Of a stretch of DNA of 32,000 nt, positions 3,832 to 14,344 are shown piece after piece. The translations under genes and the position numbers were made by a program. The stretch spans positions 2,340,001 through 2,372,000 of the forward strand of contig NZ_CP017260.1 in assembly GCF_001735745.1 (NCBI RefSeq), written 5' to 3'. Origin of the DNA: Formosa sp. Hel1_33_131. GTDB lineage: Bacteria > Bacteroidota > Bacteroidia > Flavobacteriales > Flavobacteriaceae. How positions within the stretch are numbered: position 1 is the stretch's first letter; every line of letters starts with the position of its first letter. Under the pieces are notes generated by a model, which saw only the letters and a list, made by a program, of their open reading frames with translations, ran no database searches and was not told where the DNA came from.

Positions 3832-4254
3832 TTATTTTTTAACAAGACTGTTTAGAAACTCATCTGGAGACATCACAGGTAGTAATGATTTTTTAAAATC
3901 TTTTCCGTTTCTAGTAATGATTAATTCACAACCAGATTCGATAGCACTAAAATATTGAAGCGCATCTTCAAAATCCTTAAATGATGAATTTAAGCCTTTT
4001 TCAATAGTTTGTGCATCAAGAGAACAAATTTCACTTATAACATTGAACTTCCTCAGTTTTTCTCGAGCCTTTTTAGAGTTTTCAAATTTTGATAGAAAAT
4101 AATTCAAGGTTGCATATGAAATAGGAGAAACCACTAAAGTTAAAACTTCTTTTTCCCCTAAGGATGCTATTTTAGCAATGGACTCATAGAAAGGTTTACG
4201 CTCCCCCAAAAGGTCTAACATTACATTTGTATCTATAAAAATTCTTTTACTCAT
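3832..4254 (-). CDS. PIN-domain toxin (VapC-like)
   Basis: 140 aa. N-terminal IFIDTNVMLD acidic motif and C-terminal ITRNGKDF, as in PIN proteins. ATGA overlap with the upstream small ORF. Confidence 0.75.
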   Translation of the reverse strand: MSKRIFIDTNVMLDLLGERKPFYESIAKIASLGEKEVLTLVVSPISYATLNYFLSKFENSKKAREKLRKFNVISEICSLDAQTIEKGLNSSFKDFEDALQYFSAIESGCELIITRNGKDFKKSLLPVMSPDEFLNSLVKK

Positions 4255-4499
4255 TGATATTTCTCTATTAAGTAATCAGAGTAAACTTCTTTATCATCTA
4301 AATCAGCAGGAATGTTAATCCCTGTTGCCATACTTTTTACAAAAGGAGATATTTCAAAATCCGTTTTATTTTTTTCAGACGTTAGCGACTGCAGATAAGC
4401 CTCAATAATTCTAGATAAACTCATTTTTTTATCAGAAGCATATTTTTTTGCATTCTCAATAATTTCCTGATTTAACTTTAATGTTAGTTTAGTATCCAT
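4251..4499 (-). CDS. cognate antitoxin-like small protein
   Basis: 82 aa. Its stop overlaps the PIN start by 4 nt (ATGA at 4251-4254). N-terminal LTLKLNQEIIENAKKYA...SLSRIIEAYL resembles an RHH-like antitoxin. Confidence 0.55.
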   Translation of the reverse strand: MDTKLTLKLNQEIIENAKKYASDKKMSLSRIIEAYLQSLTSEKNKTDFEISPFVKSMATGINIPADLDDKEVYSDYLIEKYQ

Positions 4500-6767: not shown

Positions 6768-6832
6768 ATTTGCTAACGGTTGGGCTATGCGCAGTGTCCG
6801 GAAGGGCATTGCGTATAGGTGTTGTTGTGCGT
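6768..6832 (-). repeat. attC-like junction element between the SBBP unit and the three-gene unit
   Basis: Plus-strand layout: ATTTGCTAAC, 7-nt spacer, 15-bp stem 6785-6799/6804-6818 (12 Watson-Crick pairs plus 3 G-T) with a 4-nt loop, 5-nt spacer, GTTGTGCGT. Confidence 0.55.
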
Positions 6833-6867
6833 TCGTGCTTTACTTTTCATATTTTCCTCTTCTAAGG

Positions 6868-7440
6868 TTACAATCCATTTACCTTAAATATTAATACACA
6901 CAGTGCTTTATCAAATCGGTGGTAAATTTTTTCCTCTTCTTTTTTGTCGAGAATGGAGTACTTGAATCCTTTTTTTTGAAAGTCACCTCCTGTAACCATT
7001 TTTCGATATTGAAAACGACAACTCTTTATCTCATCAAAGTCATCCTTAAACTTGTTCTTTCCACAATGATCAGAAAGAGTAATAATAGTGTCAAGTTCGT
7101 TAGAGATAGTTGTAAATAGACTTATCAGTTGGTATGTGTTTGCAGTTGAAACGGCCTGTTTTTGAACGCATTCTGCAACGGTGTGATTCACAATTCGAAT
7201 AGTTCCTTGCAAGGCCTCAACTTTGCGAATAATTACATCTTTCTCGCTTCTCTTGTTATGCATGTTTCGCTCAAGAAAAATCGGGATGTAGACAGCAAGA
7301 AAAATTGTGACAAGCAAAGTTGCCAATCCAACTACATCAATTTTGTCTTCAAATGAAAAGAGCGGGTAATAATGCTGTAATCCCATTCCGATTACAACAC
7401 CAACAATTACCAGTATAACTCCAATAATGTAGCGTATCAT
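6868..7440 (-). CDS. 2-TM membrane protein of unknown function (candidate effector)
   Basis: 190 aa. Two N-terminal hydrophobic helices (IIGVILVIVGVVIGMGL, VVGLATLLVTIFLAVYIPIFL), then a soluble helical region. The start overlaps the upstream stop as ATGA (7437-7440). Confidence 0.55.
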   Translation of the reverse strand: MIRYIIGVILVIVGVVIGMGLQHYYPLFSFEDKIDVVGLATLLVTIFLAVYIPIFLERNMHNKRSEKDVIIRKVEALQGTIRIVNHTVAECVQKQAVSTANTYQLISLFTTISNELDTIITLSDHCGKNKFKDDFDEIKSCRFQYRKMVTGGDFQKKGFKYSILDKKEEEKIYHRFDKALCVLIFKVNGL

Positions 7441-7793
7441 TTTTCGTTGGCTTCTTTAATGTACTCGATAATGTCATCTTCTAGGAACGGATCATCATCT
7501 GATTTGAATTCTAGGTTGGCCAGCACGATTTTGGATTCCTTGTACTCCCTTGCAAGACCACCAAAGGCAGCTTCAAGAAAAGAAGTTGCATAGCCTGCCG
7601 TACCATCAAGGTCGATTAACAATTTTTTCTTCTCCGTGAGTGCTTGCTTAAATTTTGGTAGGAGAATCTTTTCCAAAAACTCTTCTCCAGGGAAATCGCC
7701 TTCAATTTCCTCCCGTACACCAGGAATCGTAGTGTAGTCGTTTGCTATTTTAATAATTAACTTGTCCATCTGTTTGTGTTGTTTAGTTCCCAA
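7437..7793 (-). CDS. STAS-like small protein (DUF4325-type)
   Basis: 118 aa (110 aa if the start is the MDKLII Met at 7769). The core LLIDLDGTAGYATSFLEAAFGGL resembles the STAS / anti-sigma-antagonist strand-helix motif. It overlaps both neighbouring genes. Confidence 0.55.
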   Translation of the reverse strand: MGTKQHKQMDKLIIKIANDYTTIPGVREEIEGDFPGEEFLEKILLPKFKQALTEKKKLLIDLDGTAGYATSFLEAAFGGLAREYKESKIVLANLEFKSDDDPFLEDDIIEYIKEANEK

Positions 7794-8785
7794 TAAAGAA
7801 ATGTTCCACTAAATTCTTTTGATAGTCTTTCAAATTTGTCTGTGCTCAAATCAGCCTTCACATCATTCGAAATAATTTTAAGATTGCTGTAGTAATTGCG
7901 TTCAAGGCCTCTGTATATGTTTGGTAATCCCTTACCTCTATAAGGGATCTTAGTGCTTGACATTTTTCGGCCACTGATGATTTCTTTCAATACATCACGG
8001 TTGTCTGTGATACCAAAGAAGGATGTTAGTTTGTCACGGAATCCACTCATTTTTGAAGACTTAAAGATTCCAACTCCCATATCAATGAAAGCAAAAGATA
8101 CCTTGTTATGAGCTTGGTCGTGATACACTGTGAGCCACCAAGTTTCCTGCCCTACTTGTTGGGGTTTAGCATGATAGCAGGTATTTGCCATGCATTCCAT
8201 TAATGCACTATAAATACCCATACATCTTGCCTCTTGTCCAAATACGATTTTTGTTGCTCGTTTTATCAATTCATTGGCAATACCGCCTTCTGCTTTCTTA
8301 TTCTGTCGAGTAAGAATGTAATTCTTGTGTTCGCTATCTGAACTACTTGCACCAAAAACACCGCTTTCCTGAAATATCTTCCTCAATTCTTCATCTCTAG
8401 GGTAGTTGCCTTTAATCGGAACTCCTTTGGTTATTGCAGGATTCTTTACAATCGCTAGTAAAAGGACAATAGCATCATTTGTCAAGTTGGTAATGTCCTT
8501 TAGGTTAATTAAAACCGGCTTTCTGTGATTAATCTTTTCTCGAATTCTTTCTAGATACGCTAAAACGGCAACCGTATTCTCTACAAATGAAAAATTCGAA
8601 GGTGCATGCAAACTCTCAAATTGGCTGATTATCCTTCTTTCACGTTGTTCTGCGATTGGAACCCCATCTGTTGCTCTTCTCTTTGCTTTGGCTTTTTCTT
8701 TACTCAATAGCTGTTGCTTCAAACGATCTTTTGCCCGTTTGGTATTGCGCTTTTTATACTCAGCTGTTGTGTAAAGTTTCTTCAT
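7757..8785 (-). CDS. GHKL-superfamily ATPase/kinase-like protein with basic N-terminal tail and an internal STAS-like segment
   Basis: N-box-like ALMECMANTCYHA, G1-like FIDMGVGI, G2-like RGKGLPNI, terminal GTFLYWEL. Residues 1-50 are Lys/Arg-rich. Residues ~55-140 (VLINLKDITNLTNDAIVLLLAIV) look STAS-like. Confidence 0.6.
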   Translation of the reverse strand: MKKLYTTAEYKKRNTKRAKDRLKQQLLSKEKAKAKRRATDGVPIAEQRERRIISQFESLHAPSNFSFVENTVAVLAYLERIREKINHRKPVLINLKDITNLTNDAIVLLLAIVKNPAITKGVPIKGNYPRDEELRKIFQESGVFGASSSDSEHKNYILTRQNKKAEGGIANELIKRATKIVFGQEARCMGIYSALMECMANTCYHAKPQQVGQETWWLTVYHDQAHNKVSFAFIDMGVGIFKSSKMSGFRDKLTSFFGITDNRDVLKEIISGRKMSSTKIPYRGKGLPNIYRGLERNYYSNLKIISNDVKADLSTDKFERLSKEFSGTFLYWELNNTNRWTS

Positions 8786-8831
8786 TTAAATTTCACTTCC
8801 TGTCTAGGCTTAGCTTGTTCTTTTTTGTATG

Positions 8832-8888
8832 ACGCACAACGGTCTTTGTAAAATGCGTTTTAATGCATCTTTACATATTGTTAGCTGC
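8832..8888 (-). repeat. attC-like junction element between the three-gene unit and the helicase unit
   Basis: Plus-strand layout: ACGCACAAC, 6-nt spacer, stem 8847-8856/8865-8875 (6 bp + 4 bp, with C8869 extrahelical), 4-nt spacer, GTTAGCTGC. Confidence 0.5.
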
Positions 8889-8904: not shown

Positions 8905-11058
8905 TTATTCATTTAGTTTTTGTTCGTCTCCGCAATATGGACAGAAAGCGAAGCCTTCGTCCAAGCGGTTGCTACATTTTGAGCAAAGCGTTATTTCCTC
9001 AATTACAGACTTAAATGGAATACTAGTCTTGAAAGTAAAATTATCTGGAATCTCTTTTAGAAAACTCGATTCATTTCCTTTTTCTGTAATAAGAAACAGG
9101 TCGTCTTTTGCTCTTGTGATTGCTACATAAAAAAGTCGTCTTTCTTCTTCAAGTAACAGGTCGTGATTCGATTCTTTGATAACTTGATAAATTCTGTCCT
9201 CCATCCAAATGTCAGGAAATCCTCCACCTCCTTCTGTCAAACCGATAATAAAGACTGCTTTTGCTTCAAGTCCTTTTGAAGCGTGAATTGTTTTGCCTGA
9301 AACAAATACTCGTTCTTGTTTGAATCTTTCAAAATATGGACTGTACATTTTACTTCTGCGATAGAGAAATAGAATATCCTCTTTCGTGTAGCCTTTTTCT
9401 TTTAGCTTGTGTACTTGGTCAAGCACATATTCAATGTTTTCAGCTTCATTTTTCCCTGAATATATGTGAATCTTGCTACTTGACTTTTTATTGGACTGAA
9501 CATTTTTATTTACCTTGAATTTGTTATGCTTGATTACTTCATTACTTGCACCAACAATATGTTCGGTGCTTCTGTAATTCATACTCAATTTTATAGTTTC
9601 GGAATCCTTAAAATGCTTCTTGAAATTTACAATGTAATCTACATTTGAACCTCTGAATCCATATATGCTTTGCCAATCATCTCCAACGCAGAAAAGTTGG
9701 TTTTTAGCTGTCAACAGAAGTTTAATTAATTCCACTTGCAGGTTGTTTACATCTTGAAATTCATCTACTAGAATATATTCATATTTACCTCTGAACTTAT
9801 CTGCTATTTCATTATGATTTTTAAATAGCGAAATGGTCTTTGTAATCATATCGTTGAAGTCGAGATATGATTTGTTGGTGCAATACGATTGATATTGTTC
9901 TATTGCAGGAATGGCAAGTTTGTAAAAATCTCTAACTCGTTCGTGTTGGTCTTTTTGTGATTGTTCTAAAACCATTTTTGTTGGTATATTCTCCACTTTT
10001 ATCATATCAATTACACGCATAGTTTGGCGTAAAAAGTCTTTTACTTCTTTGTGGTAAGAGTTAAATTCCTCCTCAAAAGACAGGGCAGTAGAGAAGTGGT
10101 AATTTGAAGGAAGTCTATTTTTTACAATTCGCTCTAAAACCAAATTAAACAGCGCTGTATCTTTTGTTTGGTGCTCAAATGTTTTTACAAGTAGTTTGTT
10201 TGCTTTGTTAAACTGTTGTTCTTTGCCTTTAGTTGGATAACTTTTTTGGCTTACGTGTTCTAAGTACAGATTGGCTTCTGGAATGAAAAAATCTGGTCTA
10301 AAATCAAAATCTCTGAAATTCACATTAGGTTCATACTCGAACTTGATACTGTGGCGATAAAGCCAATCAGCAATATATTGTTCAGATTTTGAACGAACCT
10401 TAGTTCCGTTTAATGTTGTGTAAAATTTACCGTCCTTAGGTAAGGAAAGACGTTTGTCTTTTTCAATGTGGATTTTATCAATCATATAATCCAAAATGTA
10501 TCTTTTCAAGTTGAGCAGATACTCGTTGGATTCGCAGTTTTCGATTAGAATTTTATGAATGACTTCAAAAGCTGTTTCGGTAGCCGAATACTTTGCAAAT
10601 TCATCATCTGTAGCTTTTGTATCTCCAATAATTTTGAATTTGTTGTCAAATTCATTTACTCCAAAATTTCGGATAATGCCGTAGCAAAGACTATGAAAAG
10701 TCTTGAGCGTTAGGTTATCAATCCATTTGTACTTCTTGGTGAAAAAGTATCGTTCTGTATCTTTTTCTTTTGCAGTTCGATTTTTGTTTGCTAAAATTTC
10801 GACATATTCTTCTGTATCATCTGCTGAAATAATAAGCCTATCAAGCATTTCATTAGCGGCATTTTTAGTAAAAGTGATTGCCAAAATGTTGCTTGGATTT
10901 ACTCCCTTTTCTTCAATGAGATAAATTAGCTTTTGAAGTAAGGTTTTCGTTTTTCCCGAACCTGCTCCTGCAAGTACAAGAAGTCTTTTACATTCAGAAA
11001 CTACAGCTTGTCTCTGTTTTTCATTCAGTCCACTTAAATCAGTTTTGGTTTCCGTCAT
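8905..11058 (-). CDS. SF1 UvrD/Rep-like helicase with embedded restriction-endonuclease-fold-like insert and C-terminal zinc ribbon
   Basis: Helicase motifs I AGAGSGKT, Ia ILAITFTKNAANEM, II ILVDEFQDVN, III VGDDWQSIYGFRG, IV NYRS, V IHASKGLEAKAVFI, VI YVAITRAKDDLFL. The insert between Ia and II carries SKSEQYIADWL...FEYE...RPDFFIP...LYLEH. The C-terminus is CSKCSNRLDEGFAFCPYCG. Confidence 0.88.
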   Translation of the reverse strand: MTETKTDLSGLNEKQRQAVVSECKRLLVLAGAGSGKTKTLLQKLIYLIEEKGVNPSNILAITFTKNAANEMLDRLIISADDTEEYVEILANKNRTAKEKDTERYFFTKKYKWIDNLTLKTFHSLCYGIIRNFGVNEFDNKFKIIGDTKATDDEFAKYSATETAFEVIHKILIENCESNEYLLNLKRYILDYMIDKIHIEKDKRLSLPKDGKFYTTLNGTKVRSKSEQYIADWLYRHSIKFEYEPNVNFRDFDFRPDFFIPEANLYLEHVSQKSYPTKGKEQQFNKANKLLVKTFEHQTKDTALFNLVLERIVKNRLPSNYHFSTALSFEEEFNSYHKEVKDFLRQTMRVIDMIKVENIPTKMVLEQSQKDQHERVRDFYKLAIPAIEQYQSYCTNKSYLDFNDMITKTISLFKNHNEIADKFRGKYEYILVDEFQDVNNLQVELIKLLLTAKNQLFCVGDDWQSIYGFRGSNVDYIVNFKKHFKDSETIKLSMNYRSTEHIVGASNEVIKHNKFKVNKNVQSNKKSSSKIHIYSGKNEAENIEYVLDQVHKLKEKGYTKEDILFLYRRSKMYSPYFERFKQERVFVSGKTIHASKGLEAKAVFIIGLTEGGGGFPDIWMEDRIYQVIKESNHDLLLEEERRLFYVAITRAKDDLFLITEKGNESSFLKEIPDNFTFKTSIPFKSVIEEITLCSKCSNRLDEGFAFCPYCGDEQKLNE

Positions 11059-11788
11059 CTTTCAGATTTTGAGATTCATAAATTAGTCTTTGTCCATTAG
11101 ATTCTATTGAGCCTTTCCCTCTTTGGAAGCATTCAGAAAGTAGGTCAAGGTCATTTGTGTATTTGATAGCTTTGTTTAGAAGCTCTTTTTCCATATCAGT
11201 CCAAGATTCGTATGCTCTTGGGTGATTGATTCTTGCAATCTGAACGTATTCAGAAAGGTTTTCGGTCTTTTGAATTCCTAATTGGTCAACCTTTTCTTTT
11301 AGCTGATTAACAGCTTTTTCGGTGAGCTTATTGAATGTTTCTTTTTGAAAAAAGTCAATTTCCTTGTAAGGGTTGTTTTTTCGATTGTTTCTGTTGGTCA
11401 AGTTGTTGTCTGAAAGATATTGAGTGAAAAAATCTAAAAGCTGTCCTTTTTGGTAGAGATTCCGATACTTTCCATAGAGTTGATTTGAAACAAGAGTTTC
11501 ATTTTTGAATTTCCTTGTCCCAAGGAAGAAGCCAACTAATTTATTGGAAGTAGGGTTTTGCTCTTTTTCTTTAAATAAGTCAATTACGTTTTTAATTTCC
11601 AAATCGTCAATCTCAATTTCTGAAACTGGTTGTGGTTGATTTGTTTTTAGGTAGTCAATAGCAATTTGTAATGCTCGGATAACATCACGTTCATTTAAGA
11701 CACTTTCATTGTCAATCATTTCTCCTGTTGTGGGTGAACAACCTGAGACAAGGGCTTCTAATATTTCTATGGTTCTATTTATATCCAT
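11039..11788 (-). CDS. uncharacterised 249-aa partner of the helicase
   Basis: It overlaps the helicase start by 20 nt. The C-terminal RAYESWTDMEKELL...CFQRGKGSIESNGQRL resembles a SANT/Myb-like W-x3-E-x2-L helix-turn-helix. This assignment is weak and rests on the motif alone. Confidence 0.5.
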   Translation of the reverse strand: MDINRTIEILEALVSGCSPTTGEMIDNESVLNERDVIRALQIAIDYLKTNQPQPVSEIEIDDLEIKNVIDLFKEKEQNPTSNKLVGFFLGTRKFKNETLVSNQLYGKYRNLYQKGQLLDFFTQYLSDNNLTNRNNRKNNPYKEIDFFQKETFNKLTEKAVNQLKEKVDQLGIQKTENLSEYVQIARINHPRAYESWTDMEKELLNKAIKYTNDLDLLSECFQRGKGSIESNGQRLIYESQNLKDDGNQN

Positions 11789-11804
11789 TCGGTTTCTTCA
11801 ACTT

Positions 11805-11876
11805 GCAGCTAACGTTAAGTATATGAAGCGTTGCCTGCCGATAGGCGGCTATGATTTCATATACAGTGTTAGGCAC
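11805..11876 (-). repeat. attC-like junction element between the helicase unit and the Sel1-like unit
   Basis: Plus-strand layout: GCAGCTAAC, 5-nt spacer, 9-bp perfect stem 11819-11827/11856-11864 plus an inner GC stem around GATA, 3-nt spacer, GTTAGGCAC. On the minus strand the end boxes read GCCTAAC ... GTTAGCT. Confidence 0.6.
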
Positions 11877-11884
11877 TTTTTTTT

Positions 11885-12991
11885 TTAATTTTTTCTACTT
11901 TCATAATACTTATACACGACCGCCAATTCTTGCCAACGATTGTTTTCGAGCGAGTAAAAGCTAAAGCTTAGTTGAGTGTAATTCGTTCTATATCTTTTTT
12001 GGTCTAGAAAAAGAACTAGTGTACTATCTCTTAGGAAAATTGGTTTTGAGAAGGTATAAACGATAGAGCACATATTCTTTTCCTTTTCAGTTCCTAGTTT
12101 TTCAGTTTGGTCGAATGTATTTTGAATTTCTTGTGGACTATCAAGACGACTAGAGTAAGGAAATAGATGTTCTTCCCATTCGTGATTCGATAGCGTGCTT
12201 AATTCCTTTAAGATATAACTCTTTTCTTCAGCTGATAACTTTAAATTTTCAGTTTGTTTCCCTCTGTATAATGACCATAATTCAAATTCTTCAGTTGTCT
12301 CAATAGCTGATATCGTTGAATTGATTATTGATGTGTCTATGGACTTTGTATAATAGAGAGTGTCACACTCAAACCTTTCATATTTCCACCTTGATACCCA
12401 ATCTCTGTAAGGATCTTCCATCAGCTCTAATTTATTCTCAGGTATCTCAGACTTTTTGGATTTTTCATTACCCACATCAGGAATAGTAGCGTTGAATTCT
12501 TCAAGATTTATTTTGTCAAAGGTTTGCTTTTTTTCTTCTAGTATCTGCTTAGCTGATTGTAACTCCTCAGAAGACATATAAGCCTTGATTAAATATCTAG
12601 TGGTCGTTCCTTTTTGAATCGGGTCATAAGCAGCAGCAATTTCAGCCCAGACCAAAGCATCTACTTTATATTTTGGATTGGTTGAACTCTTTTCAAAATA
12701 CACAACAGATAATAATCCCATTGCTCTCCCAAACTCTTGATTTGCAGATTTAACTAAATACTGTTCAGCCAGTGAGTCATTTTTTATTTCTAATTCCTTA
12801 CTGTAATAACAAAATCCAACAATAAACTGGGCTACTTTATCACCTGAATTTGCATATGGCTGCATTATTTTAAAAGACTTCATGAATTGTTTCGAATCAA
12901 AAGCTTTCAGTCCTTTTTCAAACCTAGCATCTTGTGAAAATGTTATTGTTGATATGAAGCAAAATAATATTATTGATGTAAATTTTTTCAT
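11885..12991 (-). CDS. secreted protein with N-terminal Sel1-like repeats and an unknown C-terminal domain
   Basis: Signal peptide MKKFTSIILFCFISTITFSQ. Segments such as GDKVAQFIVGFCYY and EFGRAMGLLSVVYF are Sel1/TPR-like. Confidence 0.5.
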   Translation of the reverse strand: MKKFTSIILFCFISTITFSQDARFEKGLKAFDSKQFMKSFKIMQPYANSGDKVAQFIVGFCYYSKELEIKNDSLAEQYLVKSANQEFGRAMGLLSVVYFEKSSTNPKYKVDALVWAEIAAAYDPIQKGTTTRYLIKAYMSSEELQSAKQILEEKKQTFDKINLEEFNATIPDVGNEKSKKSEIPENKLELMEDPYRDWVSRWKYERFECDTLYYTKSIDTSIINSTISAIETTEEFELWSLYRGKQTENLKLSAEEKSYILKELSTLSNHEWEEHLFPYSSRLDSPQEIQNTFDQTEKLGTEKEKNMCSIVYTFSKPIFLRDSTLVLFLDQKRYRTNYTQLSFSFYSLENNRWQELAVVYKYYESRKN

Positions 12992-13347: not shown

Positions 13348-13773
13348 TCAAACTTTCTCCTTTGTTTTTTTGATTTTAAACACAACATCTTTCTTAACCA
13401 ACTCATCAGATGCAGCAGGCTTTCTAAATTGCTCAACTTGAAGTGTTGATTGAAATTCAGGGATTTCAATTAAACTAATATTTAGTATTTGTTCAATTTT
13501 AGTAACAGTTTCTAATTGCAGGTTTTCAGTACCTTTCAATAGTTTGTTCACATATTGTGGTGAACAAACCATTGCTTCGGCTAATTCTTTTTGAGTTTTT
13601 GGAAACACATCAGCCGTTTTATTTGCTTTAAGAGCAGACATTATTCTGACAGCAATCGTAAAAGAAATATCTAGCCAAGTTTTATTTTCTTTACGGTATT
13701 TTGCTCTTTCAACCCAAGAGTTATCTTGTTTTGAGTTTTTTTCAAGTCTATTTTTTATGTTGCTCATACGCAT
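13348..13773 (-). CDS. XRE-family helix-turn-helix protein (antitoxin/regulator-like)
   Basis: QKELAEAMVCSPQYVNKLLKGTENLQLETVTKIEQIL is a canonical HTH_3 motif. Confidence 0.8.
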   Translation of the reverse strand: MRMSNIKNRLEKNSKQDNSWVERAKYRKENKTWLDISFTIAVRIMSALKANKTADVFPKTQKELAEAMVCSPQYVNKLLKGTENLQLETVTKIEQILNISLIEIPEFQSTLQVEQFRKPAASDELVKKDVVFKIKKTKEKV

Positions 13774-13792
13774 TTGAAATTATTAGATTATT

Positions 13793-14344
13793 TTAATTTA
13801 TTTCAACGAATTCTAAATGTTTGTTACCTTCATCCTGTAGGTGATTTCTTGTAAATTCTAATTTATACAGCTCTAAAATTAAATGATCTCTATTATTCAT
13901 TGTTTGTGTGAGTTTAATTGCTCCTCCGCAAACAACAAATAGATTGGCTTCAATTCTTATTGCATACATCCGAAGCCAACTGTGTCTTTTGATTCCTTTC
14001 GCTTTGTCTTTTTCAAATTTTCCGTAGATGTACCCTTTTGATAAAGGCTCAAATAAGGTTGATAATGTTTCAAGTCTTTCAGTTTTTCCAGTTTCTGCGA
14101 TGTATAATAATTCTTCTTCAAAAAGTTGAGCATCTTCTCTTGTTTTAATAATGGCATCTTCAATTGTTATGTCATTCCAAAACTTGTGCTCTAAATCTTC
14201 CTTGTGCTGCTCGAAAAACGCTCTTAAATAGATTGGATCGTTCCATAATTCAAAACATTTCGCAAATTCATTTAACATCTCAGTTTCATACTGAACTGAA
14301 TATAAACTGTCTTTTACTATTACAAATGTATTAATTATTTTCAC
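13793..14344 (-). CDS. hypothetical protein; the C-terminal half weakly resembles RelE/HigB/Gp49-type toxins
   Basis: 183 aa with a GTG start, 19 nt upstream of the HTH gene. HSWLRMYAIRIEANLFVVCGGAIKLTQTM resembles the beta-strand core of RelE-fold toxins. The N-terminal 100 aa are unassigned. Confidence 0.4.
   Translation of the reverse strand: MKIINTFVIVKDSLYSVQYETEMLNEFAKCFELWNDPIYLRAFFEQHKEDLEHKFWNDITIEDAIIKTREDAQLFEEELLYIAETGKTERLETLSTLFEPLSKGYIYGKFEKDKAKGIKRHSWLRMYAIRIEANLFVVCGGAIKLTQTMNNRDHLILELYKLEFTRNHLQDEGNKHLEFVEIN

Follow-up and report, generated by a model that had tools for sequence, protein, structure and literature searches.

Three overlapping genes on the minus strand

The DNA considered here is a stretch of 32,000 nucleotides (nt) from Formosa sp. 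Hel1_33_131 (contig NZ_CP017260.1, positions 2,340,001 to 2,372,000; below, the window, to which all coordinates without a locus prefix refer), and our subject is a trio of overlapping minus-strand open reading frames (ORFs) within it, here called genes A, B and C, whose products are a predicted GHKL-type kinase, a small STAS-like protein and a small membrane protein (Table 1). The original prediction for this DNA, made from the nucleotide sequence, had described three translationally coupled minus-strand ORFs joined by an overlap of 13-37 nt and by an ATGA overlap, and the list of ORFs and the sequence itself agree with it. Genes A and B overlap by 13 nt if B begins at its ATG codon and by 37 nt if it begins at an alternative TTG codon (7437..7793, 118 amino acids), and the ATGA at 7437-7440 is common to B and C. 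The ATG start of B, which gives a protein of 110 amino acids, is the one chosen by independent gene calls on metagenome contigs that carry identical genes.

DNA similarity between the trio and its three closest relatives (in Cyclobacterium, Aquimarina and a metagenome-assembled genome (MAG) of the Flavobacteriales) stops at the first and last codons, 8785-6869, and the genes around the trio in the closest-relative genomes are unrelated to those of the window. The similarity extends further, from 8840 to 6776, in the case of L002, the Aquimarina MAG locus. The limits that had been drawn around a bracketed unit, 6824-8840, thus held up in part: they find support in the similarity to L002, but the similarity to loci L001 and L003 stops at the start codon of A, and a repeat search around the trio found no meaningful flanking direct or inverted repeats, only short chance repeats. 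Despite these absent repeat brackets the trio is a discrete unit, since DNA similarity ends at the gene ends. The sole flanking feature found around it is a stem-loop at the downstream end, which is without a T-run on the minus strand and is a possible terminator of the cassette. At the other end, the non-coding stretch upstream of A probably holds the promoter and the 5' untranslated region; a consensus scan gave no convincing sigma-70-type promoter, performing no better than on shuffled sequence, and such a scan does not cover Bacteroidota promoters. A tRNA search gave no tRNA gene in the window. The G+C fraction of the trio is 0.375, compared with 0.33 for the genes on either side, and the low-G+C region that contains the trio is about 11 kb long and flanked by housekeeping genes; it also has a PIN toxin-antitoxin pair, gene fragments, a UvrD-type helicase unit and helix-turn-helix (HTH) proteins.

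Table 1. Positions of the three genes, their parts and flanks, and placement of related trios in other loci
Feature	Position	Strand	Basis and description
Gene A	7757..8785	-	ORF, 342 amino acids; VapK/CapK-like, with predicted basic N-terminal helix, STAS-like domain and SpoIIAB-type GHKL kinase domain
A residues 1-54	8624..8785	-	Highly basic helical N-terminal extension; sequence, and helices 8-39 and 44-54 in the model
A residues 55-145	8351..8623	-	Own STAS-like alpha/beta domain; alternating strand/helix in the model, colinear with the STAS region of VapK
A residues 160-342	7760..8308	-	Putative GHKL (Bergerat-fold) ATP-binding/kinase domain; invariant motifs, SpoIIAB structural matches
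Gene B	7437..7769	-	ORF from ATG, 110 amino acids; VapS-like STAS protein, Pfam DUF4325
Gene C	6868..7440	-	ORF, 190 amino acids; two N-terminal transmembrane helices and a predicted cytoplasmic helical bundle; proposed effector
Upstream non-coding stretch	8786..8840	-	DNA similarity with L002 reaches 8840; moves together with the cassette
Stem-loop, 15 pairs	6785..6818	-	Just downstream of C; hairpin search, reported on the + strand; within the stretch common to L002
Trios of L103-L105	L103:2516-9921		hsdR-hsdM-hsdS operon; gap between hsdS stop and start of the trio 7 nt in L103 and about 50 nt in L104 and L105
Trios of L096-L098			Gut Bacteroides-type contigs; trio after an Eco57I-type methylase / BsuBI-PstI endonuclease pair
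Trio of L099	L099:1028-13747		Inside a bacteriophage exclusion (BREX) locus, between a 1,216-amino-acid PglX/MmeI-like methyltransferase and AbiEi/AbiEii, PglZ and BrxL

Linkage and spread of the trio

The original prediction had left the co-occurrence of the three genes in other genomes to be checked, and they do co-occur elsewhere. A scan of one genome per species yielded 135 relatives of A, from which 80 loci were kept and fetched. These are mostly from Bacteroidota, the other sources being Acidobacteriota, Verrucomicrobiota, Gamma- and Betaproteobacteria, Nitrospirota, Fibrobacterota, Cloacimonadota, Patescibacteria and one archaeal MAG. In iterated profile searches of all ORFs of the 80 loci, A, B and C were adjacent, in the same order and on the same strand in 77, and clustering placed the third gene of one further locus (L077) in the C family; the order A-B-C is colinear in 78 of 78 evaluable loci. 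L058 and L075 were left out as not evaluable because their contigs end inside or just after the unit. Even among distant variants whose third protein is not detectably homologous to C, the third position is still taken by a protein of 160-210 amino acids with one or two transmembrane (TM) helices.

Trios that are 80-89% identical in protein sit in unrelated neighbourhoods, near-identical cassettes turn up in more than one genus and context, and across phyla the distribution is patchy. The family is also very large. An exhaustive profile search with the A family against 1.84 billion cluster representatives returned 3,972 clusters at 50% identity with an E-value threshold of 1e-3, 2,755 at 1e-10 and 1,248 at 1e-30.

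Protein A resembles anti-sigma-factor kinases

The invariant columns in an alignment of 33 homologues of A, reaching down to 26% identity, are exactly the motifs of the Bergerat fold: an N box (E197, M199, N201, T202, H205 and A206), a G1 box (F233, D235, G237 and G239), a G2 box (G284, G286 and P288, with K285 and L287 nearly invariant) and a G3 box (G327 and T328). An AlphaFold2 model made from this alignment (mean predicted local distance difference test score (pLDDT) 83, predicted template modelling score 0.76) has a long basic helix at 8-54, an alternating strand/helix domain at 55-145 and an alpha/beta sandwich at 160-342. A Foldseek search of the model against the PDB gave four significant matches, all of them to SpoIIAB (1til_E, 1l0o_A, 1tid_C and 1th8_A; E 8e-5 to 5e-4, target template modelling score 0.65-0.70, probability 1.00), and CheA P4 ranked after SpoIIAB. 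The model was also matched by 6m37_C, from the RsbV/RsbW complex, over 88 columns with a root-mean-square deviation of 3.0, and this match fits the N-terminal STAS-like domain of the model. When the 33 homologues were scanned separately against Pfam, 6 weakly matched HATPase_c and 2 weakly matched STAS. By its modelled fold, then, A begins with a basic helix, continues with a STAS-like domain and ends with a GHKL kinase domain of the SpoIIAB type, and by analogy with proteins of the last type it would be an active kinase. The earlier description of A as a GHKL-like protein with real Bergerat motifs, a STAS-like segment of its own and a very basic N-terminal tail (19 K/R among residues 1-54) is borne out by these results.

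Little of this is visible to database scans of a single sequence. Neither Pfam nor NCBIfam nor PADLOC has a family that protein A by itself matched, PDB searches with its sequence and profile gave chance matches only, and its homologues are all annotated "hypothetical". It does match phrog_3364 of the PHROGs collection (E 5e-34), a family whose function is not annotated. Pfam scans of A and of its 33 homologues matched no HTH family, and the N-terminus is a single long basic helix in the model.

Protein B is a DUF4325 protein with a conserved Ser/Thr dyad

The STAS-like character that had been proposed for B was confirmed by a match to Pfam DUF4325 ("STAS-like domain of unknown function", E 8.6e-12). 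Residues R19, G24, G28, G59, S63, F69, G70 and L72 are invariant in 79 members of the B family, and D55 is kept in 78 of the 79 and is invariant in a 36-sequence alignment. Position 62 is Thr or Ser in 77 of the 79 members and position 63 is Ser in all 79, and this dyad stands at the start of helix alpha-2. The original prediction had seen a Thr/Ser of B at the position where STAS antagonists are phosphorylated, and Ser48 of the homologous protein VapS (below) aligns with position 62. By analogy with VapS the phospho-acceptor may be either residue of the dyad, T62 or S63, and B itself would be an antitoxin. The protein ends in an acidic tail with 9 D/E in its last 22 residues (from residue 89).

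B matches the C-terminal ~100 positions (339-439) of the 441-position family phrog_5816, for which no function is annotated. In some phages, this match suggests, the STAS module is joined to a larger protein, which may be a kinase-STAS fusion.

Protein C is a rapidly diverging membrane protein

C matches no family in Pfam, PADLOC, NCBIfam or PHROGs. No match to Pfam SLATT was seen at E <= 1, where there were only weak, sub-threshold, unrelated matches, and neither Pfam nor a fold search gave a PIN match. The C family diverges fast (mean column identity 28%), and two N-terminal hydrophobic helices and a helical segment of about 130 residues are kept in all its members. In the AlphaFold2 model of C (pLDDT 78.7) TM1 spans residues 2-23, TM2 starts at 36 and continues as one long helix to 94, and further helices lie at 99-127, 132-150 and 166-189. 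The invariant residues are G14 and G18, which form a GxxxG motif in TM1, T45 in TM2, and T150; R64 is nearly invariant. Conservation is concentrated in the TM helices, at G14xxxG18 and T45. The sequence has a K/R-rich stretch after TM2, and because positive residues follow TM2 the helical bundle is predicted to be cytoplasmic, not periplasmic. T150, a threonine of this predicted cytoplasmic bundle, is invariant in curated alignments of 36 and 38 sequences, is present in 99% of 78 family members, and lies within an "LTxTP" motif in many homologues.

Foldseek searches of the C model found no match at E <= 0.001 in the PDB or BFVD, the E values being at least 0.04 in the former and at least 0.0055 in the latter. 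The ligand-binding domains of Tar and Tsr, OspC, FAT domains and tail-fibre segments that appeared among the matches are generic helical bundles, and no homology was read from them. In two MAG loci (L016:7082-8016 and L052:7260-7878) gene C is split or joined out of frame to B, which could be inactivation of a toxic gene or an assembly error.

A and B are related to the kinase and antitoxin of VapKSC

The profile of B weakly matched PDB entry 9Z7O, "Escherichia VapS", and this match led to a recent description of the VapKSC and CapKS systems (Chambers, Rani, Min, Villa and Corbett, EMBO J 2026; PMC13373217), in which 9Z7O is the VapS-VapC structure. According to that paper, CapK has HTH, STAS and GHKL domains and is switched on by single-stranded DNA (ssDNA); it phosphorylates CapS, a STAS protein with a winged HTH domain, on Ser54 of helix alpha-2, and adjacent immune operons are thereby de-repressed (PMC13373217). 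VapK is the STAS-GHKL kinase of a three-gene operon, vapKSC, in which the 116-amino-acid VapS, made up of a STAS domain and a C-terminal helix, counteracts the PIN nuclease VapC as its antitoxin and binds this toxin directly; the ssDNA-activated kinase phosphorylates the STAS antitoxin, the PIN toxin is released, and the phosphomimetic change S48E in VapS abolishes both binding and antitoxin activity (PMC13373217). Activation by ssDNA needs an aromatic residue, F54 in VapK and W68 in CapK (PMC13373217). Protection by vapKSC against phage Bas42 amounts to about 2 logs, 36% of vapKSC operons have another defence gene no more than 10 kb away, and capK-capS follows a restriction-modification (R-M) system in 88 of 443 cases (PMC13373217). 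The paper makes no mention of membrane or transmembrane third genes (PMC13373217), and a search of the literature library available found no other paper describing these proteins; STAS mentions in Kaur et al. 2020 are unrelated. The statement in the original prediction that no named system matches this architecture has been overtaken, VapKSC/CapKS being a clear relative, and the kinase-STAS phospho-switch that it considered plausible has been demonstrated by experiment for the homologous VapKSC (PMC13373217).

For comparison, the VapS and VapK sequences were taken from the AlphaFold file deposited with that paper. VapS falls in DUF4325 (E 2.7e-17), the Pfam family common with B, and VapK matches HATPase_c weakly, as members of the A family do. 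When the A alignment was compared with VapK by hhalign, the N, G1, G2 and G3 boxes were in register (P 9.5e-4), and a global alignment was colinear over 283 columns (A 39-342, VapK 1-296; P 5.4e-5) with 16% identity. A broadened hidden Markov model (HMM) of the A family scored VapK at 19.3 bits (one-to-one P 2e-8), and the B-family HMM scored VapS at 15.7 bits (P 6e-7). Each of the three B-VapS alignments puts Ser48 of VapS on B position 62, just before the invariant S63. The comparisons indicate genuine, though distant, homology between A and VapK and between B and VapS.

The resemblance extends to the organization of the operon. As in vapKSC there are three coupled genes in the order kinase, STAS protein, third gene; the first encodes STAS and GHKL kinase domains colinear in the two proteins, with ATP-binding motifs in register; the second encodes a DUF4325 protein of about 110-116 amino acids that has a conserved Ser/Thr where helix alpha-2 begins and a short tail at its C-terminus; a linked phosphatase is absent from both; and other defence genes are often near. 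The differences are that the third gene here specifies, in place of a PIN nuclease like VapC, a two-TM protein with a helical bundle, that A has an extra N-terminal basic helix of about 40-54 residues that is absent from VapK, and that the aromatic F54 of VapK is not conserved in A. Furthermore, mechanism and phage protection have been demonstrated for VapKSC, whereas the trio is known from its genes and models.

CapK-CapS shares with the trio a GHKL kinase with an internal STAS domain, which phosphorylates a separate STAS protein on a conserved Ser, and a frequent position directly after R-M operons. CapK, however, has an N-terminal HTH at the position of the basic helix of A, CapS is a winged-helix repressor whereas B (DUF4325 plus a short tail) is without a DNA-binding domain, and the constant partner of the trio is a membrane protein rather than a variable downstream operon. 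The SpoIIAB-SpoIIAA and RsbW-RsbV pairs provide the best structural matches to the kinase domain of A (1TIL, 1L0O, 1TID and 1TH8) and the logic of a STAS antagonist that carries a phospho-serine, but the trio is without a sigma factor or PP2C phosphatase (in the operon, the recurrent neighbour clusters and the top 25 Pfam families of neighbours), its kinase is fused to a STAS domain of its own, and its distribution is mobile and patchy.

Genomic neighbours of the trio in other genomes

The genes that neighbour the trio are almost all singletons when clustered across the 80 loci. Those that do recur are HsdM, HsdS and HsdR, RhuM, Fic/Bro-N, DUF4268, and N4/N6 and C5 DNA methylases. The top Pfam families of the 121 immediate neighbours are type I S subunits, N6_Mtase, phage integrases, ResIII, Eco57I, GmrSD and Schlafen/AlbA_2, with MmeI, BsuBI/PstI and a C5 methylase as single cases. 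No PP2C phosphatase is among the 25 most frequent Pfam families of these 121 neighbours, which fits a one-way switch. In several loci the trio adjoins or lies within R-M or BREX genes (Table 1), and in L103-L105 it is placed as if co-transcribed with hsdR-hsdM-hsdS. This last placement recalls that of capK-capS after R-M systems.

Mobile elements carry the trio as well. Marinobacter phage AS1 encodes AS1_41 (371 amino acids, A-family HMM E 5e-22), AS1_40 (B, DUF4325, E 4e-34) and AS1_39 (159 amino acids, one TM helix) in genes with 4-nt overlaps, and this trio directly adjoins a gene for a CI-like repressor and is divergent from cro. In two-component abortive-infection systems with membrane effectors, such as lambda RexAB, a small membrane protein is likewise controlled by a cytoplasmic sensor, and rexAB adjoins cI as the phage AS1 trio adjoins its repressor; there is no sequence or fold relationship to RexAB, however, and control in the trio would be exerted by phosphorylation of the STAS protein. 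In the annotation of the Francisella prophage KIRK a 293-amino-acid protein whose best match is in phage AS1, a 112-amino-acid DUF4325 protein and a 125-amino-acid TM protein are placed between the CI repressor and the integrase (PMC7924643). Relatives of A also occur in 12 IMG/VR viral contigs, and those that are long enough also have B and a C-like protein with one or two TM helices. Plasmid p4 of Leptospira interrogans carries genes for an "ATP-binding protein", a "STAS-like domain-containing protein" and a 166-amino-acid hypothetical protein, and an MNT-HepT pair adjoins this trio. Homologues are thus found in variable, defence-rich regions, with R-M, BREX, phage-repressor and plasmid MNT-HepT neighbours, as the original prediction anticipated for a defence system. 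These loci show strict linkage of the three genes, horizontal mobility, and a defence-island and prophage context. Of the computational checks that the original prediction had named as able to refute it, none did so.

A kinase-controlled membrane effector as the favoured reading

The homology of A and B, the gene order, the coupling, the absent phosphatase and the context are alike in the trio and in VapKSC, and the third gene differs; it is most economical to suppose that the logic of VapKSC is kept and its output alone changed. By this analogy we lean, on balance, toward the trio being a self-contained three-gene module of the toxin-antitoxin or abortive-infection type, of the VapKSC kind with a swapped membrane effector. 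A would be a Ser/Thr protein kinase of the anti-sigma-factor (SpoIIAB/CapK/VapK) type that is inactive until infection or damage provides a cue; this cue may be a nucleic acid, which either the STAS-GHKL groove or the basic N-terminal helix could bind. Unphosphorylated B would be a STAS antitoxin that binds the cytoplasmic helical domain of C and keeps C harmless. Once activated, A would phosphorylate B on the Thr62/Ser63 dyad at the start of helix alpha-2, and phospho-B would release C. Free C would then, probably after self-association through its GxxxG TM helix, damage the membrane, and growth of the infected cell would stop.

A broader and more tentative proposal is that there is a large class of such kinase-gated abortive-infection systems, in which a VapK-like kinase frees a membrane-disrupting two-TM toxin from a STAS antitoxin in response to a trigger other than ssDNA, as a second line after restriction failure. 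The trigger is put in these terms because the stacking aromatic is missing and a conserved basic helix has been added. Trios, which are repeatedly appended to R-M and BREX operons, might there be a second line of defence that fires when restriction fails, in the way that PrrC does beside EcoprrI.

Several observations weigh against this reading. The fold searches gave no recognisable toxin or pore-forming fold in C, so that its proposed role as a toxin is argued from analogy. The invariant T150 of C may be a phosphorylation site and thus a second target of the kinase. The one-to-one hhalign probabilities for A-VapK and B-VapS are 18-39%, that is, the similarity is remote. The trigger of A, argued by analogy with VapK, may differ from ssDNA, because the ssDNA-stacking aromatic aligns with a variable residue and a basic helix has been acquired; F54 of VapK stands opposite A N100 in the remote global alignment, and this pairing is provisional. 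Of the 80 loci, 15 have type I R-M genes no more than 6 kb away, a raw count that carries no comparison with genomic background as a measure of enrichment. Lastly, PADLOC-DB v2.0.0 gave no match to A, B or C at E <= 1.

The same observations on C could be read in another way, with C as an anchor in the membrane or a sensor there (envelope perturbation and DNA injection are examples of what it might sense) that passes a signal to the A-B switch, and with the output exerted on a target, in host or phage, that is not linked to the trio. A toxin-like fold is absent from C, the four-helix bundles that its soluble part resembles are common in receptors, its strong divergence is what would be expected of a surface that tracks variable partners, and T150 could be a regulatory phospho-site. 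Nevertheless exactly three genes travel into unrelated contexts, so that the output must be encoded within the module; the third gene of VapKSC is a toxin (PMC13373217); the positive residues after TM2 place the bundle in the cytoplasm, not the periplasm; and conservation is highest in the TM helices. We therefore judge a sensory role of C unlikely.

Classical partner switching differs from the VapKSC scheme in the protein that holds C. A would sequester the cytoplasmic domain of C, and unphosphorylated B would compete A away, so that phosphorylation of B keeps C silenced and loss of ATP or of the kinase frees it. Such a role for A would agree with its best structural matches, which are anti-sigma kinases able to bind a STAS antagonist as well as an output protein; the extra basic helix and own STAS domain of A could give added binding surfaces, and the basic helix could be a partner for the acidic tail of B. 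In the one close relative that has been characterised, however, it is the STAS protein that is the antitoxin and binds the toxin directly (PMC13373217), and we consider this arrangement rather unlikely.

A third possibility is that the trio is a phage or prophage gene set that works for the benefit of the element itself, in superinfection exclusion or in the timing of lysis, with C acting like a regulated holin. Its homologues do occur in the immunity region of a temperate phage, in predicted viral contigs and in PHROG families, and the modelled topology of C, with two TM helices and both ends predicted to be cytoplasmic, is like that of a class-II holin. This is improbable, since most loci are chromosomal, beside R-M or BREX genes and without phage genes nearby, and the phage AS1 trio adjoins the repressor and is not in the lysis cassette; moreover, prophage-encoded exclusion is itself a defence and overlaps the reading that we favour.

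The data disfavour two further readings. Control of a neighbouring immune operon in the manner of CapK/CapS, with A phosphorylating B and the operon de-repressed, would suit the homologous kinase-STAS pairs that often lie just downstream of R-M systems, as some trios do, but is very improbable here: the 110-amino-acid B is without the winged-helix DNA-binding domain that defines CapS, and while C is constant, each locus has unrelated genes downstream of the trio. A housekeeping partner-switching module for a sigma factor or another core process, suggested by the RsbW/RsbV- and SpoIIAB/SpoIIAA-like fold and logic, has a negligible chance of being correct given that no sigma factor or PP2C phosphatase is in the operon or among frequent neighbours, that distribution is patchy across phyla with near-identical cassettes in different genera and contexts, and that conserved synteny with core genes was not seen in the fetched loci.

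Other genes of the variable stretch in the window

The region 8905-12991 on the minus strand has, directly upstream of the trio, a gene for a 717-amino-acid UvrD/PcrA-type helicase with an insertion of about 130 residues in the 1A/1B region and a C-terminal zinc ribbon, whose best PADLOC matches are RTasHel and GajB. This gene overlaps a 249-amino-acid ORF by 20 nt and a 368-amino-acid ORF precedes the latter, neither of these ORFs having a family match, and the region may be a separate helicase-based defence candidate. A functional link between this helicase and the trio was considered and rejected, the helicase being absent from the 80 related loci of other genomes.

At the left edge of the low-G+C variable stretch (3832-4499, minus strand) a gene for a 140-amino-acid PIN_3-domain toxin overlaps an upstream 82-amino-acid ORF by 4 nt, and the two are likely a toxin-antitoxin pair of the VapBC type. 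Between 4504 and 4927 there are several short overlapping ORFs of 43-64 amino acids that resemble the remnants of disrupted genes, and these fit a decaying or variable region. At the right edge (13348-14344, minus strand), adjoining DCC1 and MutS2-like genes, a 141-amino-acid HTH_3 protein matches the PADLOC candidate-system models PDC-M64B/C, and a 183-amino-acid ORF beside it weakly matches PDC-M64B.

Significance

The design principle of a kinase paired with a STAS protein is already known, having been published in 2026 as VapKSC/CapKS. What is new is that, as far as sequences indicate, there is a sister family of very large size whose switch is coupled to a membrane protein and whose kinase has a distinct N-terminus, and of which Pfam covers B only. 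The different N-terminus of A and the missing ssDNA-contact residue suggest a new trigger. If the reading favoured here is true, the CapK/VapK kinase-STAS phospho-switch, so far found with a transcription factor or a PIN nuclease as its output, would also gate a membrane effector, and a type of defence system that PADLOC-DB v2 does not model would be added to those known. It would also give a function to a large family of "hypothetical proteins", to many DUF4325 proteins and to PHROG families 3364 and 5816, in a type of system that is abundant in Bacteroidota, including gut Bacteroides, Alistipes and Parabacteroides.

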